This document shows positions 32,762-62,241 of a stretch of DNA of 64,000 bases, piece by piece. The notes below the pieces were generated by a model. That model did no database searches. It was not told where the DNA came from and worked only from the letters and a program-made list of their open reading frames with translations. Position 1 is the first letter of the stretch, and every line of letters begins with the position of its first letter. This DNA comes from an uncultured Thiotrichales bacterium (GTDB lineage: Bacteria; Pseudomonadota; Gammaproteobacteria; UBA4575), in assembly GCA_964636225.1 (NCBI GenBank), contig CAZWQM010000003.1, forward strand, positions 74-64,073. Direction: 5' to 3'. The translations under genes were made by a program, and so were the position numbers.

Positions 32762-33985
32762 TCACGCCACTTTATTCATGTTTATTTTTTTTGCCGCAAC
32801 GATTTTGTCAGAGAGACTATCAGGAAGGAATCCTAAAACAGCCACACCAACCGTTACCAATAGTAGAGTTATTGCCATACCTGCCAAACCAAGCAACATC
32901 TCCCAAATACTTGGCGTGTATTGGCCAACTTCACCATCAAAGAATGAACTACTCACTTCCATGCCAGGGAACATTTCCAGTGGAAACGCCTGACCACCCA
33001 CCACAATCACATAGACTTGAGCCAGCCCGCCCAATATGATCATGGCGCAAATTGCGACCAGTGTTTTTCGACAATTCTGTACTTGAGGCATGTAGATTAA
33101 TGCCAGCGGAACCAAACCACCTATAATAATATGCCCCACCCAAAACAGTGTTGTGTAGATACCACCCTCTAACAGGAAAAACTTCTCAACACTGTGATGC
33201 TCTGTCGAATAAAGCTTGGTTATGTGATAGACGACCGTGAAATATAATACACTCGCGATAAACACACCTAGCAAATTGCGTAATTTATTCAGCACGTAAT
33301 CGCCCAGAGGCCGTTGTGTGCAACTATAGGATGCCATAAGCACTAGAATAAAAAATGCCAGTCCAAAAGCGAATGACATGATAATGAACATAGGTGCCAA
33401 GACCGCTGTATCATATGCACTACGAGCAACCAGGAAACCAAAAATTGAACCTGTACCTGTAGTAAGTATCAGACGCCAAATGAATGCGACCACACCTGCT
33501 TTTTTACTGTATTTCATCATGCTGTTGTCCATCATCCACCACATGTAGATGCCAACGATCACAAAGAAACCGGTATATAAGAAAATATTCCAGGCAAAAA
33601 TAGATTTAAAGTTATAGGTGGTCATGGCAACGATCAATCTGTCAGGACGACCCAAATCCAATACCAATACAGCGAGTCCACCGGCCAATAGCGAAAGTGC
33701 TAACAAGGCGGATAATCTGGCAAGCGGTTTATATTCGACTTTTCCAAATACAGAAGCAATGGATGCCACATTCAGAGCACCAGAAGCTGCAACAATTAAA
33801 AAGATTGCAAACACATGTGGCAAACCCCAGACGATCTGGTTAGTCATGCCGGTAATGACATGACCTTCATGTTCCATATGGTGAGCCGATAACAGACCAA
33901 TGGCCGTCATTAACGCCAGACCGATCAACAACATCCAGAACTTGGGTGAACGCGCTTCGATAGAGCTATATCTTAAAGTTTCCAT
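32762..33985 (-). CDS. dsrP: DsrP, NrfD/PsrC-like integral membrane subunit of the DsrMKJOP complex
   Basis: 407-aa polytopic membrane protein directly following the dsrO-like ferredoxin gene in a dsr cluster. Confidence 0.88.
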   Translation of the reverse strand: METLRYSSIEARSPKFWMLLIGLALMTAIGLLSAHHMEHEGHVITGMTNQIVWGLPHVFAIFLIVAASGALNVASIASVFGKVEYKPLARLSALLALSLLAGGLAVLVLDLGRPDRLIVAMTTYNFKSIFAWNIFLYTGFFVIVGIYMWWMMDNSMMKYSKKAGVVAFIWRLILTTGTGSIFGFLVARSAYDTAVLAPMFIIMSFAFGLAFFILVLMASYSCTQRPLGDYVLNKLRNLLGVFIASVLYFTVVYHITKLYSTEHHSVEKFFLLEGGIYTTLFWVGHIIIGGLVPLALIYMPQVQNCRKTLVAICAMIILGGLAQVYVIVVGGQAFPLEMFPGMEVSSSFFDGEVGQYTPSIWEMLLGLAGMAITLLLVTVGVAVLGFLPDSLSDKIVAAKKINMNKVA

Positions 33986-33989
33986 GTCT

Positions 33990-34787
33990 TTATAAACCCT
34001 GGTATCTAACGCCCGTATTCAGCCCCAGGTCAGCACGTATTTGCGTACCACCAAATTCTTTCAAGCGTTGTGAAATTTCACTTTGCGGATCATTTAAGTC
34101 ACCAAAAATTATTGCCTGATGGCCTTCACTCGCACATGCTTGTGCACAGGCTGTGGTGTTATCTCCGGCATCAACTTTATTTACACACATATTACAGGCG
34201 TCAACACAGCCTTTACCACGTGGCGTATTTGGGAGCTGATTTTCCAATACTTCATGAACAAACGATCGTGCTTTATATGGGCATGCCATCATGCAGTAAC
34301 GACAACCAATACAGGTATGCATATTCACTAATACGATACCGTCGTCACGCTTAAATGATGCACCTGTAGGACACACATCAACACAGGGCGGATGCTCGCA
34401 GTGTTGGCACATGACAGGAAATGACTTGCTATTCTTTGTCGTAGGATCTTTTATGGTAATTTTTCTGATCCACTGCGAATCAGTGCGGGAACCTTCTTCT
34501 GGCCATAGACCGTGCTCATCATTACACGCGGTAACACAGGCATTGCAGTCATCAGCACACTGATTAACATTTACCAACATTCCCCAGCGAACTTTATCTG
34601 TGACGGCTTGATCCGCCGGTTTGGCAGCGGCCGTTTGGTAAAGCATTACACCAGGAGCAACAGCCAGTCCTGACACACCTAACAGGCTTCCCAGAAATGA
34701 ACGCTTACTTTGATCAGTTTTCTGTATATCGACACCCTGATCAGGTTTGCGCAATAGTTTGTAGGCTTTATTAACGACGTTATTCAT
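33990..34787 (-). CDS. dsrO: DsrO, periplasmic 4Fe-4S ferredoxin-like subunit
   Basis: Tat-like signal (KRSFLGSLLGVSGLAVAPG) and multiple Cys clusters (CQHCEHPPCVDVCP, CIGCRYCMMACP). Confidence 0.88.
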   Translation of the reverse strand: MNNVVNKAYKLLRKPDQGVDIQKTDQSKRSFLGSLLGVSGLAVAPGVMLYQTAAAKPADQAVTDKVRWGMLVNVNQCADDCNACVTACNDEHGLWPEEGSRTDSQWIRKITIKDPTTKNSKSFPVMCQHCEHPPCVDVCPTGASFKRDDGIVLVNMHTCIGCRYCMMACPYKARSFVHEVLENQLPNTPRGKGCVDACNMCVNKVDAGDNTTACAQACASEGHQAIIFGDLNDPQSEISQRLKEFGGTQIRADLGLNTGVRYQGL

Positions 34788-34789
34788 TT

Positions 34790-35278
34790 TTACTGTGCTG
34801 ACAAAAGACTGGAATTTAAAATTAACTCATTAGCACTTGCGTTCATATCGAGATGCGGGTTAGTGCCATTGATAGCATGCTGCTTAATGGCTTCTCGCAC
34901 TGCCCCTTCAGGCCGATCCGCATGACACTGAAAACAATCTATGCTCACTGCCGCATAACTATGGCAGCTTGCACAGAAGTGTTCTTCGCTATTGGAGTAA
35001 CGCGCATAATCGCCCTGAGCATTGGGTGTGATATGACAATCAATGCAGTTTTTCAAACTGTGTTTTTTAGTACGTATCCCTTGGACAACAGTTTTATCCC
35101 GCTGGTGTAACACGGTTTCAAAATGGTTGGAACGCATCCACACCGGATCTTCGACACACTGCTCTCCTTTAGGCGGCGGCACATTACTGCCGTCAGCAAC
35201 TAATGCGTTGCTGAAGCAGATCAGCAGTAGTGCTATTAAAACATTGCCTAGAATGTTTATACGAGTGACTCCCATCAT
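34790..35278 (-). CDS. dsrJ: DsrJ, periplasmic triheme cytochrome c
   Basis: Signal/anchor peptide plus three CxxCH motifs (CIDCH, CASCH, CFQCH) in about 160 aa. Confidence 0.87.
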   Translation of the reverse strand: MMGVTRINILGNVLIALLLICFSNALVADGSNVPPPKGEQCVEDPVWMRSNHFETVLHQRDKTVVQGIRTKKHSLKNCIDCHITPNAQGDYARYSNSEEHFCASCHSYAAVSIDCFQCHADRPEGAVREAIKQHAINGTNPHLDMNASANELILNSSLLSAQ

Positions 35279-35339
35279 ATGCTTCTGTTGTTTCTGTATT
35301 TATAGACTCCCGCCTTCGAGGGAATGACTTTTATTATAT

Positions 35340-37292
35340 TTAGTGGTCGCCAAGCGCCATGTCGATGTAACCAGTAGGACATACATCTGCACATATATGG
35401 CAGCCCACACAACGATCGTAGTTAGTATCTACATAACGTCCAGTGGTGGACTTGTCTTTCTTGACTCGAAAAACTGCGTCCTGAGGACAGTAAATCACAC
35501 AGTTATCACATTCAAAACACATACCACAGCTCATGCAGCGTTTTGCTTCTTCGACAGCCTGCTCTTCTTTTAGACCTATCAGTCTTTCCTCAAAGTGTCC
35601 TAATACCTCGTCTGAACTTGGAACGACGGTTTCACGCTGTATACGTGGAGTATATTGGAAATGTCCAAGGAACAATCGATCAGAAGAAATAATTTCTTGC
35701 GCTGAACGATCCTCAAAGTTATGAATCGAGAAACTGGACGCATCTGTACCACGCGTTTCACCTACCTGGTAGGCTTCAGGCTCTAGTCCTGTCTCCTGCA
35801 GTTTTTCAAGAAGCGAGAAATGATGTACATCTACTTTTGGTCGCTTACCAAATTCCTGACCTTTCAGATAGTGATCTACGCTTTCTGCGCAAATAGATGC
35901 CTGGCCGATCGCAGTTGTTAACAAGTGTGGACGAATAATATCACCACAAACGAAATGACCCTGTTTACCTGGCACTTGATAATGTTTATCGGCATCAATC
36001 AAACCACGGCCGTTATCAAATTCTTCCAATCCTTCCAGATCGCCACCCTGACCAATGGCCGCAACAATCAGATCACATTCAATTTCGTACTCGGTACCTT
36101 CAACTGGAGTAGGTCGACCATCTTTCATTTCACACTTTGCCATGCGTAACGCAATGGCACGACCTTCATCGTTGACGATGACTTCCACTGGCATTACACC
36201 GTTATCGATGCGCACACCTTCGTGGATAGCATCATGCACTTCATGCTCGGCTGCAGTCATTTCCTCTCGCTCGAACAATGAAGTCAGTGTGACTTCTGCA
36301 CCTTCGCGAGCAGCAGCATAAGCGGCATCGTGAGCGACATAACCACCAATCACATGCTCAGGTGCTTCCTGCTTATCCAGCTTTGAAATCTTGCCAAGAC
36401 GGCGCGCGACAGAAACAACGTCAATAGAGGTATCACCACCGCCCACACAAACCACACGATCTGCAGTAACTTTGAGCGTTCCTTTGTTAAACGCTTCCAG
36501 GAATCTCACGCCAGATACACAGTTGGGTGCATCACCGTTAGGTACTGGAAGATTTCGTCCTGTTTGGCAACCCAGCGCCCATACAACCGCATCGTATTCT
36601 TTTTCAAGATCTGCCAAGAGCACGTCACGACCAACACGGGTATTTAATTTAACTTCAATATCACCCAGATCGAGAATGCGTTGAATTTCAGCATCGAGGA
36701 TGTTACGTGGTGTACGGTAACCAGGAATACCGTACTTGAACATGCCGCCCAGCTCATCGTGGTCATCAAAAACAGTGCTGGCATGACCCATACGGCGTAA
36801 TTGATAAGCCGCTGCCAGACCGGCGGGCCCGCCACCAATGATAGCGACACGTTTACCGGATAATGTAGCTGGTGCTTCGAACTTAAAACTTTCTTTAACC
36901 GCGGTATCACCAATATATTGTTCTACGGCATTAATACCGACAAAGTCTTCGACATTGTTTCGGTTACATCCGTCCTGACAAGGTGCAGGACATACACGAC
37001 CCATCATTGATGGGAAAGGATTAGCATCCGTGGAGCGACGGAATGCATATTCCTGCATAGTGACACCTTCAGGGGGACGTTCTATTCCTCTTACGATATC
37101 CAGCCATCCACGAATGTCTTCACCTGAAGGACAGCTGCCCTGGCAAGGAGGTGTACGATGAACATAAGTAGGGCACTTATGGGATTTATCGCCTTCAAAA
37201 ATTTGGTCGCCAAAATTTCCCCACTCGTGGTCACCATCATCAAACTTACGAAATGTTAGTTTGTAAGACATGTCATCCTTTGATGTAGCCAT
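35340..37292 (-). CDS. dsrL: DsrL, NAD(P)H:acceptor oxidoreductase (GltD-like with C-terminal ferredoxin domain)
   Basis: IIGGGPAGLAAAYQL dinucleotide fold, N-terminal Fe-S Cys cluster, and C-terminal 2x[4Fe-4S] (CMSCGMCFECDNCVIYCP, CVGCHICADVCP). It lies between dsrK and dsrJ, as in sulfur oxidisers. Confidence 0.9.
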   Translation of the reverse strand: MATSKDDMSYKLTFRKFDDGDHEWGNFGDQIFEGDKSHKCPTYVHRTPPCQGSCPSGEDIRGWLDIVRGIERPPEGVTMQEYAFRRSTDANPFPSMMGRVCPAPCQDGCNRNNVEDFVGINAVEQYIGDTAVKESFKFEAPATLSGKRVAIIGGGPAGLAAAYQLRRMGHASTVFDDHDELGGMFKYGIPGYRTPRNILDAEIQRILDLGDIEVKLNTRVGRDVLLADLEKEYDAVVWALGCQTGRNLPVPNGDAPNCVSGVRFLEAFNKGTLKVTADRVVCVGGGDTSIDVVSVARRLGKISKLDKQEAPEHVIGGYVAHDAAYAAAREGAEVTLTSLFEREEMTAAEHEVHDAIHEGVRIDNGVMPVEVIVNDEGRAIALRMAKCEMKDGRPTPVEGTEYEIECDLIVAAIGQGGDLEGLEEFDNGRGLIDADKHYQVPGKQGHFVCGDIIRPHLLTTAIGQASICAESVDHYLKGQEFGKRPKVDVHHFSLLEKLQETGLEPEAYQVGETRGTDASSFSIHNFEDRSAQEIISSDRLFLGHFQYTPRIQRETVVPSSDEVLGHFEERLIGLKEEQAVEEAKRCMSCGMCFECDNCVIYCPQDAVFRVKKDKSTTGRYVDTNYDRCVGCHICADVCPTGYIDMALGDH

Positions 37293-37331
37293 AACCTTGC
37301 TCCTAGTTAGCTAATACCGTTTTAATTTAGT

Positions 37332-38879
37332 TTACGCTGCTTCAACATCATCCGATGCTGAATCTTCTTCATCACTCTCGCCATCCGTCTGTCCCGTCAG
37401 GACAATGGCATTACTGACAAGCTGATGCACGCTGACAATCTGGTCCATACTAAAATCGTAGTATGGAAATACTTTTGAAAATTGACTTTTGCATATGGCA
37501 CAGATAGCCGCCATGTGAGTCACACCATTTTCTACAGTTACCTGCTTAAGCGCCTGCATACGGGGCATGGCGCCCTTGACTCGCAGTTCGATTAAATCGT
37601 CGGTTAACAAACCGCCACCGCCGCCACAGCAATAAGTACCTTCCTTAATGGCATGCTCCGGCATATCGTAATAATGATTACAGCATGCTTTAATGATATC
37701 GCGTGGAATAGTAAATTGTCCGCCCGGGGTATCACCCATGCGTGATGCGCGCGCCACATTACAGGAATCGTGATAAGTCAGTACCATGTGATCATTTCCT
37801 GACTTATCTAATTTAATCGTTCCATCCTGTATCAGCCCGTGGGTTAATTCACAGATATGCTGCGGTACTGGATATTTGGGATCAAGAAAATCAAATGGCC
37901 CGGCCAGTGTATTCAGGAAGCTGTATGCGACACGCCATGCGTGTCCACATTCTCCGAACACGATACGTTTAACACCAAGATCAATGGCCGCTTTACGAAT
38001 ACGCAAAGCAAGCTTCTGCATGTTTTCATAACTTCCGATAAACATTCCGAAGTTTGCGGCTTCACTTGCGTATGAACTCATCGTCCATGAAATTCCTGCC
38101 TCATGGAATACTTTTGCGTAACCAATCAAACCATCAATATGCGGCTCTGCAAAAAAGTCTGCTGAGGGAGTTACCAGTAATACTTCGGCGCCTTTCAGAT
38201 CCAACGGCAATTTAACCTGCACACCAGTTTCATCCTCAATGTCTTCTTCCAGACCTTCCAAGGTATCCAGTAATGCCGGTTCCGGTAGACCCAGGTTATT
38301 TCCTAATGTCTGCGCCTTGCCTATAATTTCATTGCAGTATTTCTGCCCTTTACCGACGGCGTCCATCACTTCACGCGCAGCCATAGATATTTCAGCAGTA
38401 TCAATTCCGTAAGGACAATACACTGAACAGCGACGACATTGTGAGCATTGATGGAAATAGGTATACCAATCATCCAACACTTCTTCAGTGAGGTCTTCTG
38501 CGCCAACCAGCTTAGGTACCAGCTTACCGGCCAAAGTATAGTAACGACGATAGACTTTTCTGAATAGATCCTGGCGTGCCACAGGCATGTTTTTAGGATC
38601 CGTTGTTCCTAGGTAATAATGACACTTATCTGTACATGCACCACACTTAACGCAAGAATCCAGAAATACCTGTAGAGAACGATACTTTTTAGTTAGCTCG
38701 CCCATTTTATCAATGGCAACTTGCTTCCAGTTATCAACCAGCTCACCTGGATAACCTAACGGTGTTTGAAACTGCTCTTTGGCAACAAAAGGAGCACTGT
38801 GTGCCATTGCCCCTTTCTGCAGCTTTGGAATGATCGGATATTCTTTTAGCTCCGGTACTTCAAATTTAATGTCGGCCAT
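37332..38879 (-). CDS. dsrK: DsrK, HdrD-like catalytic subunit (CCG domain)
   Basis: Ferredoxin-type motifs CVKCGACTDKC and CSQCRRCSVYCP, plus the CCG-domain cysteines (YCCGGGGG). Confidence 0.9.
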   Translation of the reverse strand: MADIKFEVPELKEYPIIPKLQKGAMAHSAPFVAKEQFQTPLGYPGELVDNWKQVAIDKMGELTKKYRSLQVFLDSCVKCGACTDKCHYYLGTTDPKNMPVARQDLFRKVYRRYYTLAGKLVPKLVGAEDLTEEVLDDWYTYFHQCSQCRRCSVYCPYGIDTAEISMAAREVMDAVGKGQKYCNEIIGKAQTLGNNLGLPEPALLDTLEGLEEDIEDETGVQVKLPLDLKGAEVLLVTPSADFFAEPHIDGLIGYAKVFHEAGISWTMSSYASEAANFGMFIGSYENMQKLALRIRKAAIDLGVKRIVFGECGHAWRVAYSFLNTLAGPFDFLDPKYPVPQHICELTHGLIQDGTIKLDKSGNDHMVLTYHDSCNVARASRMGDTPGGQFTIPRDIIKACCNHYYDMPEHAIKEGTYCCGGGGGLLTDDLIELRVKGAMPRMQALKQVTVENGVTHMAAICAICKSQFSKVFPYYDFSMDQIVSVHQLVSNAIVLTGQTDGESDEEDSASDDVEAA

Positions 38880-38903
38880 TCTTCTTGCGCTCTTTTAATT
38901 ATG

Positions 38904-39629
38904 TTACTTGGAAGATTCCAACTTGATTGCCCACGGTGCGATATGTCTCTTCTCACGCGGATTATCCACTTGATTTCGCGTCGGACTGAAAAATACACCG
39001 GGCGCATGTAACAATTTAGAGATTGGGAATATTACCATTAGTGTAATCACCAATAATAAATGAATCACCAGAATTGAATCTGTAGGCATAGTTCTGATAT
39101 CAAATACCATTAAGCCCAATAAGTATGATTTCAAAGTAATGATGTCTGTATGTGTCACAAACGTCATTAATGCACCTGTTACTCCAATTCCAATGATTAA
39201 TAGCAACATTAAATAGTCTGAAGGTGCCGAGATATAACGCACACGATCAACCACGATACGTCGCAATAACAAACCACCTAGTCCGGCAAGCATCATTAAT
39301 GATGCATACTTACCAAATGGCTGTAACAAAGCTACCCACCACCATACCGGGTCAGTAAAATAACGCAGATGGCGCAATAAAACCAAAAACAGGCCAAAGT
39401 GAAACATCCATCCAAATAACCAGATCCATTTGTTTGATTTGAACAAACTTTCAAAGATTGTAATTTCCTTGATCATTCGAAACGCCACACCGGATGTAGT
39501 AGTCGGCGCGGGTGTGGTTGGAATTTTTAGTGGCGCAGGCGTCTTCATGTATTTGCGAATACGAAACGCAAGACCAAAGACTAAAATTGCCGTCGCAATG
39601 TAAAATAATATAGCGAATAAAATAGACAT
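38904..39629 (-). CDS. dsrM: DsrM, NarI-like dihaem cytochrome b membrane subunit
   Basis: 241 aa with about 5 TM helices containing conserved His residues. It precedes dsrK. Confidence 0.88.
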   Translation of the reverse strand: MSILFAILFYIATAILVFGLAFRIRKYMKTPAPLKIPTTPAPTTTSGVAFRMIKEITIFESLFKSNKWIWLFGWMFHFGLFLVLLRHLRYFTDPVWWWVALLQPFGKYASLMMLAGLGGLLLRRIVVDRVRYISAPSDYLMLLLIIGIGVTGALMTFVTHTDIITLKSYLLGLMVFDIRTMPTDSILVIHLLLVITLMVIFPISKLLHAPGVFFSPTRNQVDNPREKRHIAPWAIKLESSK

Positions 39630-39705
39630 TTTATATAAACACTAAAGCGTATTTGAGACAAAACCGGACGAGCCCAATGAACCCGCCCAGCTTTCAACAA
39701 AATAA

Positions 39706-40038
39706 TTATACGCAGCCAGTTGGCTTTGGAAGACCAGCATATTTACATGCTTGCTTCGCAGGGCCATAAGGGAACAATTCATACAAGTATTTGCTGTTAC
39801 CTTTATCTTTACCAAGCTTCTTGCCAATTGCCTTAGTCAAAACTCGTACTGCTGGAGCAATCTGATACTCCTCGTAGTACTCACGCAGAAAGTTAATAAC
39901 CTCCCAGTGGTTTTCGTCTAATGCAGCACCATCAGCCTCAGCCATAGCTGTTGCAAGCTCCGGTCTCCACTGATTCAAATCTGCCAAGTAACCCTCTTCG
40001 TCTGTCTCGTAACTTTGACCGTCGACTTCTATTGCCAT
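39706..40038 (-). CDS. dsrC: DsrC, sulfur-trafficking substrate protein of DsrAB
   Basis: 110 aa. The C-terminal arm ...GPAKQACKYAGLPKPTGCV carries both conserved cysteines (CysB-X10-CysA, with CysA penultimate). Confidence 0.93.
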   Translation of the reverse strand: MAIEVDGQSYETDEEGYLADLNQWRPELATAMAEADGAALDENHWEVINFLREYYEEYQIAPAVRVLTKAIGKKLGKDKGNSKYLYELFPYGPAKQACKYAGLPKPTGCV

Positions 40039-40116
40039 GTGATTTCTCCTATCGTTTTATCGCTAATCTTGATTCATACGCTATTAATCGCACAAATCAT
40101 AATCTTTCATAAATTA

Positions 40117-40425
40117 TTACAGCCAAGACTGAACTGACTTATGTTCGGTGGTCAGATCTACAAATCCACTGTAATCAACAATTTTAATGCCGTCTGCAAC
40201 ATTGTCTTCACTCAAGCCTCGCGCTTTAAGATCTGGCCCCAAGACATAAAAAGAAATATCTGACATCGCATCAGCTACTATCTTTGAATGTTTTGTATTT
40301 TTCATTGCAGCCACAACACCGTCTTCTATTAGTAAAATTGAGCTGCCTGGTTTGGCTAAACGAACGCAAGATTCAAGCGTATTTTTTTCAAACGGGCTTT
40401 TATTTACTGTATGTAGCATTGCCAT
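40117..40425 (-). CDS. dsrH: DsrH (TusB-like) sulfurtransferase subunit
   Basis: 102 aa. MLHTVNKSPF... matches DsrH/TusB. It is the third gene of the dsrEFH block. Confidence 0.85.
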   Translation of the reverse strand: MAMLHTVNKSPFEKNTLESCVRLAKPGSSILLIEDGVVAAMKNTKHSKIVADAMSDISFYVLGPDLKARGLSEDNVADGIKIVDYSGFVDLTTEHKSVQSWL

Positions 40426-40437
40426 ATGCTCAATCCT

Positions 40438-40857
40438 CTAAAAACTAAATACGACGTCTTGCTGATCAATCACTTCAGCAAGTTCTTGGCGTGAAACAAG
40501 ATGAATGGAATCTTTTTCTGCCCAATCATCGTCTTCATCTTCGTATTTCAAATCCTGCAGATCATCCAGAGACAATCCACGCTCTTCCAAAGATTCTTTT
40601 TCAATGTAAATCTTCTTGATGTCGTAATCTCCCAGCGCAGAATAAGTAGGTGAAAAGTTTTTCATGCCTATCTCACCCGTGTTTTGACCTTTCATTAATT
40701 GGTATACACCGTCATCCGCAAATACCAGACTAACATCCTGATCAAACGCTGCTGCAATTAATACAACTTCCAAAGATTCAAGCGCGTATATGGTTCCGTA
40801 AGGAGACTTACGGTTCATATACATAAATTTCTTAACTACCTGATCGCCGTCTTCCAT
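40438..40857 (-). CDS. dsrF: DsrF (TusC-like) sulfurtransferase subunit
   Basis: 139 aa with a DsrE/F fold (SPYGTIYALESLEVVLIAAAFDQDVSLVF). SD GAGAGGGA lies upstream of the ATG at 40857. Confidence 0.85.
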   Translation of the reverse strand: MEDGDQVVKKFMYMNRKSPYGTIYALESLEVVLIAAAFDQDVSLVFADDGVYQLMKGQNTGEIGMKNFSPTYSALGDYDIKKIYIEKESLEERGLSLDDLQDLKYEDEDDDWAEKDSIHLVSRQELAEVIDQQDVVFSF

Positions 40858-40887
40858 TTAAATATCCCTCTCTAGTCTTTGTTCAGG

Positions 40888-41280
40888 TTAATCACCAAAC
40901 ACAACCATACGGTCTGCCTGAATACCGGCTTCAATTAACTGCCCCAGCCCAGAGATACGAAAACCTTCAGCGACATTATTTGCAGTTTTACCATTACGCT
41001 TGGCTTCATCTTCATCCAGCATTCCACGACGCTGCGCAGCAGCCACACATAAAACCAGATCTACATCATGCTCTTTTGCCAGTTGTGACCACAGATTGGG
41101 TATATGACGGTCATCCTGTGGCGGCACCGCCAGAGACGTACCGTTATTCACACCATCATGATAGAAGAACACGCGAAATACTTCGTGACCTTTATCAATT
41201 GCGGCTTTAGCAAACTTGTACGCAGTGTCTGATGCTTGATGCGTGTAAGGGCCTTCGTTGACTAATATTCCAAATTTCAC
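40888..41280 (-). CDS. dsrE: DsrE (TusD-like) sulfurtransferase subunit
   Basis: 130 aa. MKFGILVNEGPYTHQAS..., with the active-site Cys context DLVLCVAAAQRRG. Confidence 0.88.
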   Translation of the reverse strand: MKFGILVNEGPYTHQASDTAYKFAKAAIDKGHEVFRVFFYHDGVNNGTSLAVPPQDDRHIPNLWSQLAKEHDVDLVLCVAAAQRRGMLDEDEAKRNGKTANNVAEGFRISGLGQLIEAGIQADRMVVFGD

Positions 41281-41296
41281 CGATCAACTCCCAAAT

Positions 41297-42370
41297 TTAG
41301 AAACGAATATGGGTAGAAGCATTAAGACTACGACGCGCGCCTCTCCAGTTATCAATGTGGAATTTAGTAAACGGAAGACCTGTCAATTCAAAGAATCTTG
41401 GCCAACCCACACGCTCGACCCAATCGTTAATTCTTTCCCAATCACGCGCATCTTCTTTGTATGCACGCAGAATACGCTTAACAATGGCAGTCGCTTCAGG
41501 CCAACGTGGAGGATTATTAGGTATACCCGCAGCCACCAGTTTTTGAAAAGTTGGTTTGCTACGTGCATTTGAATGATTACCGCCCACCCAAATCGCTAGT
41601 TTGGAATGTTCAGCATCATTAATTTGCATTGGAGGACATGGCGGGAAGCATGCACCACAACAGATGCATTTCTTCTCGTCCACTTCCAGTGATGGCTTAC
41701 CATTCACCAACGCAGGTCGAATCGCCGCAACCGGACAACGCGCCACAACAGAAGGTCGCTCACATACGTTTGAAACCAAATCATGATTGATTTTAGGTGG
41801 CTTGGTATGCTGCACGTTAATCGCGATGTCACCCTGGCCACCACAGTTAATCTGGCAGCAGGATGTAGTGATATGCACTCGGTTAGGCATGTTGTTTTCT
41901 CTGAACTCATCGATAAGCTCATCCATCATCGCCTTAACCACACCAGACGCGTCAGTGCCCGGAATATCACAGTGCAACCATCCCTGTGTATGCGAAATCA
42001 TTGCAACTGAGTTTTTGGTGCCACCTACAACGAAGCCTTCGGCTTCCAGCGCATCAATTAGAGGCTGAACTTTGGCCTCATCGGCCACCATGTACTCAAT
42101 GTTTGAACGGATAGTAAAACGCACATAGCCATCTGCGTACTTGTCACCGATGTCACACAGCGAACGCAATGTAAAAACGTCAAGAATTCGTTGAGTACCG
42201 GCACGCACCGTCCAGATCTGCTCGCCACTTTTGGCTACGTGCAACAAAACGCCCGGTCGCGGGTGTTCATGATAGTCCCATGCGCCATAGTTTTTGCGCA
42301 TAACCGGGTGCATGTATTGAAAGCCGTCTGGGCATCCTGATTCTATAGGTGGGCGATGTTCTTGTGACAT
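41297..42370 (-). CDS. dsrB: dissimilatory sulfite reductase beta subunit (reverse/oxidative type by context)
   Basis: 357 aa with sirohaem/Fe-S Cys motifs and a ferredoxin insert (CICCGACFPPCP). It follows dsrA. Confidence 0.93.
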   Translation of the reverse strand: MSQEHRPPIESGCPDGFQYMHPVMRKNYGAWDYHEHPRPGVLLHVAKSGEQIWTVRAGTQRILDVFTLRSLCDIGDKYADGYVRFTIRSNIEYMVADEAKVQPLIDALEAEGFVVGGTKNSVAMISHTQGWLHCDIPGTDASGVVKAMMDELIDEFRENNMPNRVHITTSCCQINCGGQGDIAINVQHTKPPKINHDLVSNVCERPSVVARCPVAAIRPALVNGKPSLEVDEKKCICCGACFPPCPPMQINDAEHSKLAIWVGGNHSNARSKPTFQKLVAAGIPNNPPRWPEATAIVKRILRAYKEDARDWERINDWVERVGWPRFFELTGLPFTKFHIDNWRGARRSLNASTHIRF

Positions 42371-42464
42371 TGTTTTTTATCTCCGAACTACAAAGCCCAC
42401 AACTAGTTGCAGGCTTTGGTGATTTAAATAATAAAAATTAAAATTCTTGCTTAAAGCCGAGCTT

Positions 42465-43724
42465 TTAGCTGGCTGCTTTTTCTTCGGCTTTACGGTTAAA
42501 CCATTTTTCAGCTTCTTCATCCCAGCCATCCATACGTACGTACGAACTTTGACGTGGGTCGTTGACCATATTTGGATCCACTTCGATGCCCACACCTTCA
42601 AGGAAATTAACCAAGCCAATACGCTCAACCATTTCGCCGCAACGCTCGTGTTCCAGGCCATTCTCAGCCCAGAAATCAATGGTCTCTTCCGCCAGCTCAG
42701 TTAATTTTTCGTAATCTTCTTCCGTTTCCAGTTTCATGAATGGAACAACAACGGTCCCCATCAAGTCACCAATTTTAAGTGTACGTTTTCCACCGATCAG
42801 GATTGTTGCACCTTTATCATCGCCTGGGGATAACGCTTTCACCATGACGTTCATACAATGCATGCAACGAACACAGTTACGATTATCCACATCCATGGTG
42901 TCATCGTCTTTGAGTGAAAGTGCTTTAGTTGGGCAGCGAGTGATCACGTTATCGATCACATATTCACGGCCTTTACGTGCAACGAATTTTTTAACTTCTT
43001 CCTGATTTACCTTCATATCGTCACGCCATGTGCCGATAATGGCGAAGTCAGAACGCTCAATAGAGTTCATGCAGTCATTACCGCAACCTGAAACTTTGAA
43101 CTTGAATTTGTATGGCAGGGCTGGACGATGCACGTCGTCAGTAAAATTATTCAAGAGTGTACGGTGAATTTTCATCTCATCCAGTCCGGACATTTCACAT
43201 CGCGCCGCACCCACACAGGACATACCAGTACGCACACATGGACCGGCACCACCAAGGTCCCAGCCGTATTCGTTGATTTCATCGAAGAAGTGTTGTGTAT
43301 TTTGGGTGGAGGTACCAATGAACATGATATTGCCAGTTTGGCCATGGAAAGTCACAAGACCAGAACCCCATTTTTCCCAGCTGTCACCCAGTTGACGTAA
43401 CATATCGGTGGTGTAGTAGTTTCCTGCAGGAGGCTGTACACGTAGCGTGTGGAACTCTTTAGATTCAGGGAACGAACTTGCTACTTCTGAGAATCTTGGA
43501 ATAATGCCGGACCCGTATCCGAATACACTGACCGTGCCACCCTTCCAGTAGCCTTTTCGAGTTTCGTATGAATGCTCTAACTGGCCAAGCAAGTCATTCG
43601 CCATACCATTGATTCTTTTATCTTCATGCTTATCACGAAGACGCTTGAATCCAGATATAAAACTCGGCCATGGTCCGTTTTCTAACTCATCAAGCATTGG
43701 GGTATCATGATGCTGGTCAGCCAT
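42465..43724 (-). CDS. dsrA: dissimilatory sulfite reductase alpha subunit (reverse/oxidative type by context)
   Basis: The start is set at MADQHHDTPMLDELENGPWPSF (ATG at 43724), preceded by SD AGGAGA. The ORF-track start at 43757 adds 11 aa that include that SD. Nitrite/sulfite reductase ferredoxin-like and 4Fe-4S motifs are present. Confidence 0.93.
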   Translation of the reverse strand: MADQHHDTPMLDELENGPWPSFISGFKRLRDKHEDKRINGMANDLLGQLEHSYETRKGYWKGGTVSVFGYGSGIIPRFSEVASSFPESKEFHTLRVQPPAGNYYTTDMLRQLGDSWEKWGSGLVTFHGQTGNIMFIGTSTQNTQHFFDEINEYGWDLGGAGPCVRTGMSCVGAARCEMSGLDEMKIHRTLLNNFTDDVHRPALPYKFKFKVSGCGNDCMNSIERSDFAIIGTWRDDMKVNQEEVKKFVARKGREYVIDNVITRCPTKALSLKDDDTMDVDNRNCVRCMHCMNVMVKALSPGDDKGATILIGGKRTLKIGDLMGTVVVPFMKLETEEDYEKLTELAEETIDFWAENGLEHERCGEMVERIGLVNFLEGVGIEVDPNMVNDPRQSSYVRMDGWDEEAEKWFNRKAEEKAAS

Positions 43725-44089
43725 TTTCAATTCTCCTAATTCACCAGTTATTTTCAAACTTGGGGTTATATTATTCCACGCGCAGATCAGCCGCTACTCT
43801 GGCTGTATATGGAGGTAGCAGTCTAGAGTTGACGGGTAGAGATCAAAATCCTACCTATGGGGTGCGGGGGGTTATACTACTTATCTCGACGGGGATATAG
43901 CGACATAAATAATTATTATCTCCACACAGTCCCTAGTCGACAATGGGTATATTATACACTTATAAAACAACCAGTTATATTATTTTTTCTTATATTATTC
44001 AAATTGTACTGAAACCTTTCACTATAGGCAGAATACTGGCCTGAATCGTACGGAATAAACAAAACGTTAACCTGGTCTCAATCCTATGA
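43725..44089. promoter_or_regulatory. divergent control region between dsrA and the TauD-like/Cas6-like operon, with a reiterated AT-rich 10-mer
   Basis: Exact TTATATTATT at 43766-43775, 43975-43984 and 43990-43999. 8/10 copies at 43948-43957 and 43872-43881. A GGGG-prefixed version, GGGGTTATAYTAYT, occurs at 43762-43775 and 43868-43881. Confidence 0.4.
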
Positions 44090-44983
44090 ATGCCAACAAA
44101 AATTATGCTGTATATGGACGATTTTGAATCTGATTATTTAAATTGGCGTGCCTCAAAATTGGCAAGCCGTGCCCTGTCCTTACATACTAACCCGGTCGCC
44201 ATACAGAATCCTGCACAATTAACTACGCAGGAACTCGAGCAGTTGCGCAACCATTGCCGAATTAACAATTTCGCTATCTATCGGCTCGCCCAGCCCTCAC
44301 TCGCCACCAAAGAAAATGTACGCTGTATGACGTCCCAGATTGGAATGAAGGCGCTGGATCAGAATTTATGCGCAGACAATGACAGTATTTCTTCGCTAAA
44401 AGTAATGAATTTAGGGCGGGCCCGAGGTTATATTCCGTACTCCACCAGCGCCCTTAACTGGCACACCGACGGCTACTACAATACATTTGACCAGCAGATT
44501 CGCTCATTTCTGCTCCATTGTGTTCAAAATGCACTTAATGGCGGGGAGAATATGCTTATAAATCATGAGCTTATTTATATTTTTTTGCATGATCAAAATC
44601 CTGCTCTGACGTATGCCCTGATGCAGCCAGATGCATTTACTATTCCAGCTAACGTGGAAAATGGTAAGGTTATTCGCCCAGCCCAAAGCGGGCCCGTATT
44701 CTATCGTGACCAAGCCACAAATACCCTGCAAATGCGCTATACCGCCAGAACTCGCAGTATTGAATGGAAAAAGAATAAAGATATTCAAACCGCTGTAAAA
44801 CTCATTGAAGAATTACTCAAACATAGTGAGCACATCATCCGTTACACGCTACAGCCTGGCGAAGGATTAATTTGTAACAATATTCTGCATGGGCGATCGG
44901 CCTTTACAAATGGGAATATTCCGGAGCAACAGCGAGTGATGTATCGTGCACGCTCTTATTACCGATTATTTAGCGATCAATAA
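44090..44983 (+). CDS. TauD/TfdA-family Fe(II)/2-oxoglutarate dioxygenase-like protein
   Basis: 297 aa. HxD in LNWHTDGYY, and a distal His/Arg in ICNNILHGRSAF about 150 aa downstream, fit the clavaminate-synthase-like facial triad. The substrate is unknown. Confidence 0.7.
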   Translation: MPTKIMLYMDDFESDYLNWRASKLASRALSLHTNPVAIQNPAQLTTQELEQLRNHCRINNFAIYRLAQPSLATKENVRCMTSQIGMKALDQNLCADNDSISSLKVMNLGRARGYIPYSTSALNWHTDGYYNTFDQQIRSFLLHCVQNALNGGENMLINHELIYIFLHDQNPALTYALMQPDAFTIPANVENGKVIRPAQSGPVFYRDQATNTLQMRYTARTRSIEWKKNKDIQTAVKLIEELLKHSEHIIRYTLQPGEGLICNNILHGRSAFTNGNIPEQQRVMYRARSYYRLFSDQ

Positions 44984-44989
44984 AAAGCA

Positions 44990-45184
44990 ATGCTCTCATT
45001 AAGTGAAATTCTAATGCAGAATCACAGCATGCAAAGCTTTGACGAGCTCAAAATCGAGCTGGAAAAGCGTGCCAGACAGGGAGAAATATTCTTCCAAATG
45101 GATGTACGTCCACCTTTCAAAGATACACCTGAAGAGTGGGAAGATATTCTTGAATCTGTATTTACTTCTGCTAGAGCAGGTTAA
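44990..45184 (+). CDS. hypothetical 64-aa acidic protein
   Basis: The ORF begins 6 nt after the upstream stop and ends 4 nt before the next start. The sequence looks helical and acidic. There is no clear SD, so translational coupling is presumed. Confidence 0.4.
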   Translation: MLSLSEILMQNHSMQSFDELKIELEKRARQGEIFFQMDVRPPFKDTPEEWEDILESVFTSARAG

Positions 45185-45188
45185 CCCC

Positions 45189-45878
45189 ATGTATTGGAAT
45201 GATGACACGGGCAATGAAGCGGTCTATGAAGTGCCAGATGACATTGTCGATGTCAATTTTAAAATCAAGTGTGCTCAGCTGCCACTGGATCACGCCCACG
45301 CACTGTCGGAGGCTGTGATCAAAGAACTGCCCTGGATTGCACACACTGAGTCGGCCGGCATACATCTGATACATGGCGCAGAATCCGGCAATGGCTGGAT
45401 TCGCCCTCGTGACCCGGATGAACTTATTTACCCGTCACGACGCACCTTATTCACCATTCGCATTCCCCAGGAGCGCATTGAAGATGTGAAAACTCTGGAC
45501 GGCAAATCAATACAATTGTGTAACACCACACTTGAATTCTCTCGTCCCAGCATTCGCAAATTATCCAAGCTCACCACTATTTTTGCACGTTATGTTCTGG
45601 CTGAAAAAGCTGAAGATGAAAACGAGTTTCTAAAAGAAATGGCTGAACAGTTGGCGATGAAAAACATCAAGCCCAAAAAGATGATGAGCGGACGCACCAC
45701 AGACTTGCGATTTCCGAATAAAACACTGTGCACACGCAGCCTGATGATAGATGGCTTGGACGTTACTGAATCGGTACTCCTCCAACAGCAAGGGCTGGGA
45801 TCTGGTAGAAAATACGGGTGTGGTCTATTTTTACCTCATAAGGGTATTGACGCGGTCAATGAGACGCAGGAAAAATAG
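45189..45878 (+). CDS. Cas6/Cmx6-like RAMP protein (orphan; no CRISPR context)
   Basis: The N-terminus VDVNFKIKCAQLPLDHAHALSEAVIKELPWI...AGIHLIHG follows the Cmx6-type Cas6 pattern (VDL.FP..G..LP.DHGYAL..AL...P.L......IHPI.G). The C-terminus carries an exact glycine-rich RAMP loop GxGxxxxxGxG (GLGSGRKYGCG). The start is set at the ATG at 45189. Confidence 0.7.
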   Translation: MYWNDDTGNEAVYEVPDDIVDVNFKIKCAQLPLDHAHALSEAVIKELPWIAHTESAGIHLIHGAESGNGWIRPRDPDELIYPSRRTLFTIRIPQERIEDVKTLDGKSIQLCNTTLEFSRPSIRKLSKLTTIFARYVLAEKAEDENEFLKEMAEQLAMKNIKPKKMMSGRTTDLRFPNKTLCTRSLMIDGLDVTESVLLQQQGLGSGRKYGCGLFLPHKGIDAVNETQEK

Positions 45879-45937: not shown

Positions 45938-46279
45938 ATGGCAATTGAAGTTAATGGAAAGAGCATTGAAACCACACCTAGTGGCTTCCTGGTCAATATT
46001 GAAGACTGGTCTGAAGCACTCGCCGAAACCATCGCCAAGGAAGAAGGTGTTGAGTTGACTGAAAAACACTGGGATGTAGTCAACTATCTACGTGACGAAT
46101 TTATTAATAATGCAGGCAACCAGCCCAATACTCGTAATATGGTAAAAGCCATGTCCAAGCAATGGGGCGATAAAAGCGTGAACGCCAAAACACTTTATGA
46201 CTTGTTCCCGGGCGATCCCAGTAAACAGGGCGGACGCATTGGCGGTTTACCAGAAAGCCGGCGCAAGGGCGGATACTAA
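45938..46279 (+). CDS. DsrC/TusE/RspA-family protein lacking both C-terminal cysteines
   Basis: It aligns along its full length with the dsrC at 39706-40038 (MAIEV.G.S.ET...G.L....W...LA...A..EG..L...HW.V.N.LR...). The arm ends ...PSKQGGRIGGLPESRRKGGY, with Gly in place of CysB and CysA. SD AGGAGA is present. Confidence 0.85.
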   Translation: MAIEVNGKSIETTPSGFLVNIEDWSEALAETIAKEEGVELTEKHWDVVNYLRDEFINNAGNQPNTRNMVKAMSKQWGDKSVNAKTLYDLFPGDPSKQGGRIGGLPESRRKGGY

Positions 46280-46370
46280 TTCACATACTCTCTATCGGGA
46301 TACATATCAGTCAGAGAATATGAATTAGAATTTAACTATTAAATTTAAGAAAATTACTATTGGAGGGCCC

Positions 46371-46574
46371 ATGAGCTCCAAGCAGGACAAAATTAAAAAA
46401 ATGTTAGAAATGCAGAAGAAGTTCATTGAGCTGGATCGCGCACGTGGTGTTTCTGCTAAAGAATACTTCACCCCTGAAGACGGCGCCGAACTGGATGGCT
46501 ACCGTGAAGAGTATGCAAAGCTCGCAATGGATGTGGTTTCAGAAGCACATAGTGAAAAAGGTTCTCGCGCCTAA
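46371..46574 (+). CDS. hypothetical 67-aa protein
   Basis: Good SD (GGAGGG). Charged, helical-looking sequence. It is the last ORF before the terminator. Confidence 0.55.
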   Translation: MSSKQDKIKKMLEMQKKFIELDRARGVSAKEYFTPEDGAELDGYREEYAKLAMDVVSEAHSEKGSRA

Positions 46575-46599
46575 GTATACTGCTACAACTTAACATCGC

Positions 46600-46629
46600 A
46601 AAAAAGCTGCATTCATGCAGCTTTTTTTA
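46600..46629 (+). terminator. rho-independent terminator (A-tract/T-tract, potentially bidirectional)
   Basis: aaaaAGCTGCAttcaTGCAGCTttttttt. The 7-bp stem spans 46605-46611 and 46616-46622, extendable by A:U pairs, and a T7 run follows. Confidence 0.75.
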
Positions 46630-46898
46630 TGTCTACAATAGCATCGCTAGCTAATCTTGACTTCTAACAGAAGCAAATAACTCTCATTACACAAGCACAC
46701 TACGTAAAGCAAACTTAAATCCAAGTTTTTAACTGCTCTTCCCGCCACAATTAAGCTACAAATTTTCAAACCATTTCTCATTCAAAGCGCATGGTTTGTG
46801 AACTGAAACACGAAAAAATTATATAAATTTAAGCCTAATGTAACCTTACTTGCATATAGTATTTCCATTACTGGAGAGTTCTACATCTGGAGAAGGCT

Positions 46899-47021
46899 AT
46901 GTTTAAAAAAGACCAACCAACCAGTCACAAGTCAGAAGAAGAGATCCGAAAATCTTCAGCTGCCTTAACAGAAAAAAAGTCGCTACCGGCCCGGAACAAC
47001 GCTCAGAAAACGATTCACTAA
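46899..47021 (+). CDS. candidate 40-aa small ORF (MFKKDQPTSHKSEEEIRKSSAALTEKKSLPARNNAQKTIH)
   Basis: Below the ORF-track cutoff. It was found by reading the sequence. SD GGAGAAGG lies 4-5 nt before the ATG. There is no family resemblance, and it conflicts with the antisense ORF at 46903-47097. Confidence 0.25.
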   Translation: MFKKDQPTSHKSEEEIRKSSAALTEKKSLPARNNAQKTIH

Positions 47022-47179
47022 ATCTGGAAGATATTAGAACTGCGGGCTTATAAACTAATTTAAGTTCTTCTAATCTGCATTCAATAAAAAGTGGCATGCA
47101 AACTTATTGTACAGTGTAACTGTAACCACAATGCTTTTTCACGACCAAGATCAGCCGTTTAGAGCTATTGTTTTTTGCT

Positions 47180-47371
47180 TTACTTTTTTGGCGACAATTG
47201 ACCAACGAAACTGTTAAACGCTGTTTCATTCACGTCTACAACACACACATCCAAACCAGACAATCTCCTATCAGGGCGCTTTCGACGTTCTATCTCAGCT
47301 TCAGACAATGTCGAATTCAGATTACGACGTTCTTGTTTCGCATGCCGAATATTTTTAGTTAAATTCTTCAT
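47180..47371 (-). CDS. hypothetical 63-aa basic protein
   Basis: ORF downstream of apt on the same strand. Arg-rich segment (ERRKRPDRR). No convincing SD. Confidence 0.3.
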   Translation of the reverse strand: MKNLTKNIRHAKQERRNLNSTLSEAEIERRKRPDRRLSGLDVCVVDVNETAFNSFVGQLSPKK

Positions 47372-47462
47372 ACAGATGCGCTGTTATATTATTTGATAGT
47401 CACATATTACCGCTACTGAAAAGACGCTTTTGCGAAAGAACTCACAATCCCCTTGAAATGGC

Positions 47463-47986: not shown

Positions 47987-48670
47987 TTATAGCTCACTCC
48001 ATTGACGCACCAGATTGACATACACCAAATCAACCTGCCTGGTATGTTCTTCCTGTGGCTGCTTGCGTAATAATTTTTCACGCGCGCAGCTTAATTGATA
48101 CAAGAGCGCCCTTTGTTGCGCGTCTTTTACCATGCTTTGTATCCAGGTCACTGCCACCAGACGCTTTCCTTGAGTAACCTCTTCTACCTGATGCCGTGTT
48201 GTCGCCGGATACATGACGGCATCGCCCGCAGCATATTTAATTAACTGCAAGCCATAATCCGTTTGAATTGACAATTCACCTCCTGCATAGTCATCAGGTG
48301 AATTGAGAAAAATGGTTAATGCCAGATCTGAGCGATAACGTTGCGCCACAGCACCGGGTGCTCCCATAATCGGATCATCGATATGTTCGCCATAATACAT
48401 ACCTTTTTCATAGCAGGCATAGAATGGGCTGGCAATTTTTAAAGGCAAAGCCGCACGCTGATAGACCTTGTGGCGTAACAGATTTCCCATCACAATATCA
48501 TTCAGCAATTTGACATTGGGATCATCACTCGGCATTTCCTGATTGTACTTAACGCTTGCAGCCGCTACTCCTGCGCTTAATTTTCCATCCACAAAACTTG
48601 CATTCGCTAATAGCCGCTGTACCTTTAACAATTCTTGGGGACCCAGCACATTTTTTAAATGAATCAGCAC
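47987..48670 (-). CDS. PKHD-type Fe(II)/2OG hydroxylase (PiuC/YbiX family)
   Basis: 227 aa. HIDD plus a later H (YPATTRHQV), and overall resemblance to YbiX. Confidence 0.8.
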
Positions 48671-61651: not shown

Positions 61652-61995
61652 ACAACATCCTTTAAAACCATGTAAATATCTTCATCCAGACGGTGTTTAT
61701 TGCGCCAGATCCTTTAATTATTATGTACAACGCACCTCAAAATTGACAAAAAGTGAGAATATTCATCAGCTTAGCGGCCAAATACCGTATATCTCGAATA
61801 TTTTACGATATTTCATATGTCCGCTGAATGGTGGCTTATAAATGTAGTAAAAACGTACCAGTTCGCTTATAGTGGTAGTCGCTACAGATTTAGTAATCGG
61901 CAATAATGGTTGTTCCCTCCGTGTTACCCCTTGAGTTTCCTGTTTCATAAGCCTGTAAGCAACATTTTTTCAATTTTTTTAAGGTAAATATTTTT

Positions 61996-62199
61996 ATGGC
62001 TACAGGTACTATTAAGTGGTTCAACGAATCCAAAGGCTTTGGATTCATTTCTCAAGACAACGGTGGAGCGGATGTTTTTGTCCATTACAGCGCGATTCAA
62101 GGCACTGGCTTCAAAACACTAAAAGAAGGTCAGACAGTGACTTTTGAAGTTGAAAACGGACCTAAAGGGCCGCAGGCAACCAGCGTTGCATCCGCTTAG
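61996..62199 (+). CDS. cold-shock protein (CspA family)
   Basis: [34 protein letters not shown] carries the RNP1/RNP2 motifs KGFGFI and VFVH. A long leader of about 340 bp lies upstream. Confidence 0.95.
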
Positions 62200-62241
62200 G
62201 AAAAAAATCATCGACCTGTCTTTTAGACCAGGTCGTTAGGC

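Follow-up and report, generated by a model that had tools for sequence, protein, structure and literature searches.

An apparently CRISPR-independent branch of Cas6-like proteins encoded beside the reverse-dsr operon of gammaproteobacterial sulfur oxidizers

We analysed a stretch of 64,000 nucleotides (nt) from an uncultured Thiotrichales bacterium, the whole of which is called the window here, that carries at 45189-45878 on the forward strand a gene for a Cas6-like protein belonging to a dsr-linked and seemingly CRISPR-independent clade. The gene has an ATG start and encodes 229 amino acids (aa), opening with MYWNDDTGNEAVYEVPDDIVDVNFKIKCAQLPLDHAHALSEAV, and the strings that had been cited in the original prediction of a Cas6/Cmx6-like RAMP protein (VDVNFKIKCAQLPLDHAHALSEAV, AGIHLIHG and GLGSGRKYGCG) are all present in the translated open reading frame (ORF). 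An alternative ORF with a TTG start, from 45039, runs into the preceding gene for a 64-aa protein (44990-45184, forward strand). Because the homologs, which are 229 aa throughout, have the same initial methionine (MYW..) and the longer TTG reading overlaps the 64-aa gene, we place the start of the Cas6-like gene at 45189.

Profile searches gave significant, full-length matches of the window protein to Pfam PF09559 (Cas6; E = 2.4e-57, 194 bits against a cut-off of 26.7) and to NCBIfam TIGR02807 (cas6_cmx6; 118 bits against a cut-off of 98.85), which bears out the predicted family identity. With the PADLOC model derived from TIGR02807 a true Cmx6 scores 255 bits, compared with 118 for the window protein, and the PADLOC Cas6 models reach 193 bits on the latter. 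The sole significant solved relative in a sequence search of the PDB was the Cas6 of a type I-B CRISPR-associated transposon (CAST; 8fcj_B, E = 1.2e-10). The same chain was the best Foldseek match (E = 7e-17, TM 0.72/0.76) of an AlphaFold model made from a 39-sequence alignment (pLDDT 84, pTM 0.81), and the matches that followed it were only Cas6, Cas6e/Cse3 and related RAMP structures. The predicted model has two tandem ferredoxin-like (RRM) domains and a C-terminal glycine-rich loop (GLGSGRKYGCG, residues 202-212), and the candidate catalytic histidine, whose retention had been put forward as a check of the original prediction, appears to be retained in it as His35, within an Asp34-His35 dyad (residues 34-35). 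Two further features of the chain are an inserted loop, AESGNGWIRP, at residues 64-73 and a C-terminal PHKGI motif at residues 216-220. Judged from its sequence and its modelled structure, the window gene encodes a genuine Cas6/Cmx6-fold protein.

It had been claimed, in addition, that the 64 kb contain neither a CRISPR array nor any other cas gene, and both claims withstood closer inspection. Tandem Repeats Finder detected nothing in the window beyond short arrays, 16-39 nt in length and 6-14 nt in period, a search of the 64 kb for direct repeats found no array and one chance two-copy family, and Rfam gave no CRISPR-DR match in the window even at a permissive threshold. A k-mer scan, which recovered the arrays of both cyanobacterial controls described below, found none in the window or in any of the loci with a Cas6-like gene (∼1 Mb in total). 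PADLOC returned Cas6 alone when run on the 47 window ORFs of at least 110 aa and the five operon proteins, smaller ORFs (for example, a lone cas2) being scanned only in the operon. In the 64-kb window the gene lies neither in nor next to a cas operon (cas3, cas8/cmx8, cas7/devR, cas5, cas4-cas1, cas2); no cas gene was seen beside the Cas6-like gene in the related loci with annotated neighbors, and no CRISPR array lies nearby within the window or the ∼1 Mb of related loci.

The constant neighbor is instead the reverse-dsr operon dsrABEFHCMKLJOP (32762-43724, reverse strand), from which the operon with the Cas6-like gene diverges. We recognized dsrA (42465-43724), dsrB (41297-42370), dsrE/F/H (40117-41280) and dsrC (39706-40038) by translation and dsrMKL (35340-39629) by homology with annotated related loci, all on the reverse strand, which upholds the sulfur-metabolism neighborhood originally proposed; three further ORFs on this strand (32762-35278) we take to be dsrJOP from their position and the usual operon order. 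To survey the context, 98 loci with a clade member were annotated with profiles of the window's own proteins and de-replicated at 60% identity into 35 lineages, with counts made only over loci that have enough flank. A divergent dsrA lies within 3.5 kb in 45 of 46 loci, or 17 of 18 lineages after de-replication, and the sole exception keeps dsrK and dsrL upstream. A TauD-like gene is found upstream on the same strand in 64 of 68 loci (25 of 28 lineages), a DsrC-family gene downstream in 67 of 73 loci (21 of 26 lineages) and a gene for a 67-aa protein downstream in 44 of 65 loci, giving the usual operon order of TauD-like DsrQ, 64-aa protein, Cas6-like protein, cysteine-less DsrC-like protein and 67-aa protein. 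In 22 of 80 loci a gene for a very acidic 235-aa protein (pI 4.5) separates the 64-aa gene from the Cas6-like gene (for example, L039:7274-7981, L087:7205-7912 and L100:9292-9996).

The most divergent loci vary in gene content. At 35% identity to the window protein, L014 has dsrAB and further dsr genes followed by TauD, a 62-aa gene, DUF6967 and the Cas6-like gene; at 33%, L099 has TauD, DUF6967, the Cas6-like gene, a 182-aa gene and a ThiF-like E1 enzyme; and at 39%, L100 is without TauD and has a 58-aa gene, the 235-aa gene, the Cas6-like gene and a DsrC-like gene. The position of the Cas6-like gene on the dsr side is kept in all three, that is, down to 33-39% identity. Because the arrangement holds in such distant members, and because no array was found in ∼1 Mb, we consider the gene to be tied to dsrAB and not to CRISPR. 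The Cas6-like gene is a constant member of an accessory operon divergent from the reverse-dsr operon of gammaproteobacterial sulfur oxidizers, and its constant dsrAB-side position across lineages, never beside cas genes or arrays, supports the exapted, non-defense use that had been predicted.

The first gene of the accessory operon (44090-44983, forward strand) encodes a TauD-family Fe(II)/2-oxoglutarate dioxygenase (PF02668, 69 bits), the translation of which contains WHTDG and a later histidine, so that the HxD...H iron triad is present. Among named enzymes it comes closest to the trimethyllysine and gamma-butyrobetaine dioxygenases, although its matches fall far short of the NCBIfam cut-offs of these and of every other named equivalog. 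A tauD-like gene upstream of the dsr clusters of aerobic and facultative sulfur oxidizers has been named dsrQ (Lenk et al. 2012, cited in PMC7596348), and it is this tauD-like gene that heads the present operon, divergent from dsrA. Löffler et al. (PMC7596348) speculated that the product of the tauD-like gene frees sulfite from sulfonates; the passage on DsrQ in that article deals only with the tauD-like gene and the speculated desulfonation and, in contrast to the locus described here, makes no mention of a Cas6-like gene.

The acidic 64-aa protein that follows is predicted to form three helices. It belongs to no Pfam or NCBIfam family, its three-helix model, although confident, has no fold match in the PDB below E = 1, and the name that NCBI gives to some of its homologs, 'sulfur relay protein DsrC', is unsupported by the Pfam and NCBIfam profiles. 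Homologs detected with phmmer precede the Cas6-like gene in 55 of the 89 loci that have at least 300 nt of flank. With a gap of 4 nt between the stop codon of the 64-aa gene and the Cas6-like ATG, for which there is no evident ribosome-binding site, the two genes are likely to be translationally coupled, and a complex of their products is suggested. Fusions of the 64-aa and Cas6-like proteins were considered and discarded, as the start appears to have been mis-called in the longer database entries.

Downstream of the Cas6-like gene, a 113-aa protein of the DsrC/TusE family (45938-46279, forward strand; PF04358, 120 bits) ends in GGLPESRRKGGY. In this family the C-terminal arm carries two cysteines in true DsrC, one in TusE and none in RspA. 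Both C-terminal cysteines are missing from the window protein, and as there is no cysteine in the last 14 residues of any of the 69 distinct sequences, we assign this neighbor to the RspA-like type rather than to the sulfur-carrying DsrC. Its tail reads GLPxxxRKGGY in 68 of the 69 and could be a substrate arm on which the TauD-like dioxygenase, or another such enzyme, acts. The last gene of the module (46371-46574, forward strand) has its own conserved promoter and encodes the 67-aa protein, for which, as for the 235-aa, 182-aa, 193-aa and 105-aa module proteins, Pfam and NCBIfam returned no family, DUF6967 being the sole family match.

The Cas6-like protein has 2,409 relatives in a database clustered at 90% identity, and among representatives at 50% identity, scanned exhaustively with HMMER, 867 clusters reach E ≤ 0.001, of which 149 are below 1e-30; identity to the window protein within the clade goes down to 32%. 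We surveyed the motifs of the clade in the best 150 of the 50%-identity representatives (32-55% identity, 210-240 aa). All but two of these have an insertion of about 10 residues, (A/P)xSGNGWxRP, which corresponds to a low-confidence loop (residues 64-71) of the AlphaFold model, and nearly all of the full-length members have the PHKGI motif. Public records name members of the clade "type I-MYXAN CRISPR-associated protein Cas6/Cmx6", and the named examples are all from gammaproteobacterial metagenome-assembled genomes, one of them Thiothrix.

True Cmx6 was represented by two controls from cyanobacterial plasmids (L012 and L013), each of which heads a complete I-MYXAN operon (cas3, cmx8/cas8, devR/cas7, cas5, cas4-cas1 and cas2) with an array of 36-37-nt repeats, 12 in one and 16 in the other, 3' of it. 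Their identity to the window protein is 26-29%, and the wider comparison with Cas6/Cmx6 of I-MYXAN (I-B) and the I-B CAST gives 24-29% identity with a common tandem ferredoxin-like fold (TM 0.72-0.78). The LPxDH motif, Arg91, Arg134 and the loop GxGxxRxxGCGxFxP are shared by the controls and the window protein. In contrast to CRISPR-linked Cmx6, members of the clade occur neither within a cas operon nor close to an array and have dsr genes as their constant neighbors, carry the 10-residue GNGW loop insertion and the PHKGI tail, both of which are absent from the two controls, and are near neutral rather than basic, most of the basic positions of Cmx6 being gone and a different set gained. Sequence and genomic context together place the window protein in what is a large clade, set apart from true Cmx6 and independent of CRISPR-Cas.

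The promoters of this locus have a rigid layout. In the dsrA/dsrQ intergenic region there is a palindrome, P1 (TATCTCGACGGGGATA, 43882-43897; consensus TATCYC-N4-GRGATA), that is found at this place in every clade examined. Its right half lies 16 nt 5' of a TATTAT −10 box (43914-43919) facing the dsrQ/Cas6-like operon, and the same 16 nt separate it from a TATAAT-like box throughout the window's clade, so that P1 overlaps the −35 position of this promoter; it also lies ∼70-85 nt 5' of the predicted dsrA start site. A second conserved element on the dsrA strand, E2 (CACCCCATAGGTAGG, 43850-43864, reverse strand; consensus CACCCC-N4-GTRGGR), begins 17 nt past P1, and the distance from its start to the dsrA −10 box (TAGACT in the window, 43825-43820; TAGACT, TAGAAT or TAAAAT across loci) is 39 nt, a spacing shared by 38 of the 49 distinct leaders. 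A P1-like site (ACTCTCTATCGGGATA, 46287-46302, forward strand) is present 5' of the 67-aa gene, exactly 23 nt from the TAGAAT −10 box of that gene (46326-46331), which in other loci is often extended (TGnTAnnnT). This 23-nt spacing is kept in 37 loci, but the rest of the spacer and the surrounding DNA are unconserved.

Because P1, E2 and the P1-like sites stand at fixed distances from −10 boxes, they would not be transcribed into the mRNAs that they control, and we regard them as DNA operators rather than RNA elements. The motif 5' of the 67-aa gene was therefore rejected as a Cas6-type RNA hairpin with a 3' handle, both on account of the −10 box exactly 23 nt beyond it and on account of the constant spacing of the related P1 and E2 sites to the dsrA and dsrQ −10 boxes. 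Where the motif pattern also matched within the TauD-like coding sequence, the matches were dismissed as coincidences of coding sequence. Since related palindromes recur at fixed distances from −10 boxes, the dsr operon, the accessory operon and the 67-aa gene are probably co-regulated at the DNA level.

Given the Cas6 fold of the protein, we assessed which features of an RNA-processing enzyme it retains. His35 is present in 132 of 145 clade representatives (91%), is replaced by tyrosine in 9 and aligns with the histidine of both Cmx6 controls. Asp34 is kept in 87% of the representatives, each of the four loop glycines in >92%, and Arg91 and Arg134 are common to the clade and the controls. In the AlphaFold model His35 directly precedes a helix (residues 36-46), which we take to be the topological place of the catalytic histidine in other Cas6 enzymes (Cas6e and Pfu Cas6). 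Eleven columns of the clade alignment are conserved as Arg or Lys at 77% or more, and we know of no Cas6 homolog that does anything other than bind RNA.

On these grounds the reading we favor, though tentatively and with a little less than even confidence, is that of an exapted Cas6 that has kept its recognition of a specific RNA and controls sulfur-oxidation genes at the post-transcriptional level, probably together with the 64-aa partner. Its ancestor would have been a crRNA (CRISPR RNA)-processing Cas6 of type I-B/I-MYXAN that was exapted for the dsr system. The retained Cas6 groove, made up of the Asp-His pair at the start of helix 1, the glycine-rich loop and a remodeled set of conserved Arg and Lys residues, would recognize a specific structured RNA, and by binding or cutting this target the protein would adjust how stable the transcripts for sulfur oxidation are or how well they are translated. 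The nearest candidate target would be the long dsrA leader with its 5' hairpin. The Cas6-like protein would probably form a complex with the 64-aa protein, whose translation is likely to be coupled to its own, and the GNGW loop, the invariant Glu144 and the C-terminal His-Lys may provide a new interface or ligand site connecting it with DsrQ or with the DsrC-like protein.

Several observations weigh against a role in RNA recognition. The median pI of the clade is 6.45 with a net charge of −2, compared with pI 9.4-9.6 and charges of +7 to +9 for the controls, and the window protein itself, with a pI of 5.9, is not a strongly basic RNA-binding protein. Seventeen positions are Lys, Arg or His in both controls, and at only four of them (His35, position 87, Arg91 and Arg134) is this kept in at least 90% of the clade, a comparison that rests on two Cmx6 controls. 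Two of the three basic residues of the G-rich loop are lost in the clade, Arg207 being retained in 64%, and new invariants have appeared at Glu144, Gly69-Trp70 and Trp3. The Asp-His dyad may be structural, as a helix cap, rather than catalytic. No RNA partner emerged, the conserved palindromes being DNA sites 5' of −10 boxes. The sole candidate RNA target, and a weak one, is a 5'-proximal hairpin, CAGCC-N8-GGCUG (43788-43805, reverse strand), in the predicted dsrA leader of ∼90 nt. Predicted dsrA leaders of 75-190 nt have a hairpin at their start in nearly all loci, but its sequence is not conserved across clades, the stem being CAGCC/GGCUG in the clade of the window and another paired sequence in L025 and L030. 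Hairpins between dsrA and dsrB, dsrH and dsrC, and dsrC and dsrM were rejected as targets, as they are GC-rich and terminator-like and have no sequence common to the lineages. Nor, to our knowledge, do the partners (a dioxygenase, a DsrC-like protein and small acidic proteins) have any link to RNA.

The same observations fit a Cas6 fold that has been repurposed without RNA, as a scaffold, a chaperone or a binder of a ligand or protein tail that works with DsrQ and the cysteine-less DsrC-like protein, for instance by presenting the RKGGY tail to the dioxygenase or by sensing a sulfur anion, with the G-loop and the Asp-His pair kept only for the integrity of the fold or for a new active site. 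We consider this a substantial alternative, albeit on balance an unlikely one. The shift to near-neutral charge with the loss of most of the basic Cmx6 positions, including those of the G-loop, speaks for such a role; Glu144, Gly69-Trp70 and Trp3 are unusual invariants for RNA binding; the partners are all proteins of sulfur or oxygenase chemistry, with a ThiF-like E1 enzyme added in one distant locus (L099); the C-terminal arm of the DsrC-like partner is invariant in 68 of the 69 distinct sequences; and no conserved RNA element was found among intra-operon hairpins, Rfam matches or leaders. However, the eleven Arg/Lys positions conserved at 77% or more, together with His35 at 91%, would suit a polyanion site, no Cas6-family member that acts without RNA is known to us, and the DsrC-like gene is absent beside the Cas6-like gene in L014 and L099 and is thus not an obligatory partner in cis.

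The Cas6-like protein might also itself be the factor that binds P1 and the P1-like sites, as a nucleic acid-binding regulator that has moved from hairpin RNA to DNA, in the form of a duplex or an extruded hairpin, and that autoregulates its own operon along with the dsr operon and the 67-aa gene. P1 accompanies the gene in every clade examined, including the distant loci L014, L099 and L100, among them loci without the DsrC-like and 67-aa genes, and it lies over the −35 region of the Cas6-like operon promoter, as is common for autoregulators; the site is an inverted repeat of 5-6 bp with a 4-nt spacer, the geometry of a Cas6 hairpin, and Pfam and NCBIfam detected no classical DNA-binding domain in the operon. 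All of the loci were chosen for having the gene, however, and the co-occurrence with P1 accordingly lacks a gene-free comparison, and the C/A combinations at one position of P1 in L009, L026 and L028 fit the half-sites of a dimeric DNA-binding protein and not a hairpin. We know of no Cas6 that binds DNA. A helix-turn-helix-like motif occurs in the DsrC family, and DsrC reportedly binds to the dsr promoter region of Allochromatium, which makes the DsrC-like protein, or else a regulator encoded elsewhere, the better candidate and leaves operator binding by the Cas6-like protein improbable. Less probable by far is that the gene is an ordinary orphan cas6 whose product processes crRNA for a CRISPR-Cas system elsewhere in the genome, with its place next to dsr being incidental. 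The protein does score above the NCBIfam 'equivalog' cut-off for Cas6/Cmx6, public records name it so, and our scans covered the window and the related loci. Yet adjacency to dsrAB is kept down to ∼33% identity and across 35 lineages, none of them with the gene beside cas genes or arrays, true Cmx6 genes head complete cas operons, and the clade has its own insertion, motifs and altered charge. Servicing of an array in trans is disfavored by the dsrAB-side position itself (17 of 18 lineages with enough flank), never next to cas genes or arrays, and a non-defense use is the one that agrees with these data. Returning to the exapted, RNA-recognizing Cas6 that we prefer, its fullest form is a whole branch of Cas6, domesticated by sulfur-oxidizing Gammaproteobacteria and comparable in diversity to the CRISPR-linked Cmx6, that serves as the RNA-recognizing subunit of an oxygen-dependent control module of the reverse-Dsr system with DsrQ, the 64-aa partner and the cysteine-less DsrC; in this complete version the proposal is rather doubtful.

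Regulation by Cas proteins outside defense has a precedent in the dev operon of Myxococcus xanthus, where DevTRS, which are Cas8/Cas7/Cas5 of I-MYXAN, act in developmental gene regulation. The CRISPR subtype is the same and the Cas proteins likewise have a regulatory, non-defense role, but the dev genes lie within a cas operon with an array, whereas the present locus has only Cas6, in a sulfur-metabolism context. The annotation 'DevR family CRISPR-associated autoregulator' occurs in the operon of one of our Cmx6 controls. Koonin and Makarova (PMC8730458) describe derived, non-adaptive offshoots of CRISPR-Cas, namely the I-E-derived cas5-6-7-8 of Streptomyces with a STAND NTPase, HRAMP, type IV systems and CASTs. 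As with the clade described here, Cas proteins have been drawn away from adaptive immunity in these offshoots and the adaptation module, in several cases also the array, has been lost; in contrast to it, they keep several effector subunits and still have roles in defense or mobile elements, whereas here a lone Cas6 sits in a locus of core energy metabolism. Neither that review nor PMC6452270 describes a lone Cas6 in a metabolic locus, and a preprint on CRISPR-linked genes does not mention dsr, sulfite or oxygenase genes. A literature search that combined Cas6 or Cmx6 with dsr terms returned only unrelated co-mentions, with coverage that was incomplete and leaves an earlier mention possible, and the word Cas6 was not found in the dsr-focused literature that was searched. 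The Cas6 family is thus known, but its CRISPR-free, dsr-dedicated branch appears to have gone unrecognized, as does its likely mis-annotation.

If the fullest form of the proposal is correct, no single Cas protein before this one would have been found to serve core energy metabolism rather than defense or a mobile element. For CRISPR biology the clade would offer a clean and widespread case in which housekeeping metabolism has exapted a lone Cas6, and a natural experiment in the remodeling of a hairpin-RNA endonuclease fold. Thousands of public "type I-MYXAN ... Cas6/Cmx6" proteins are probably not CRISPR components and inflate the counts of orphan cas genes. For the sulfur cycle, this is a conserved and unstudied accessory operon that accompanies the reverse-Dsr system in abundant marine sulfur oxidizers. 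Its P1/E2 layout has the look of operators for regulators of sulfur oxidation, and the rigid arrangement of promoters and operators supplies concrete candidates for the control of dsr expression.

At its 3' end the accessory operon is closed by a terminator-like hairpin, GCTGCA-TTCA-TGCAGC with a T run (46606-46628, forward strand), found by direct reading and absent from the list of the consensus scan. In the ∼890 nt after the end of the operon (46575-47462) all ORFs are short and doubtful; a stretch about as long is present in close relatives, and in more distant loci an oxygenase gene stands directly 3' of the 67-aa gene without it. Two 2OG-Fe(II) oxygenases of the PKHD/YbiX type (47987-48670 and 58172-58774, both on the reverse strand) are syntenic with the module in L008, L009 and L010, as are a GNAT acetyltransferase and a DUF6866 protein, and the PADLOC model '2OG, CAS-associated' was matched by two ORFs among the 47 large ones of the window, which are presumably the oxygenases just named. 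The intergenic region between dsrA and the TauD-like gene is widened to 1.3 kb in the L010 lineage, in which a 193-aa ORF (L010:8100-8681) between the two genes has a weak match to an NHLP-type leader of ribosomally synthesized and post-translationally modified peptides (RiPP; 36 bits, below the cut-off). Elsewhere in the window, Rfam-type RNA features are ordinary: an RNase P RNA of class A at 26790-27145 (reverse strand, 331 bits) and a cspA-type thermoregulator leader at 61868-62270 (forward strand, 86 bits).

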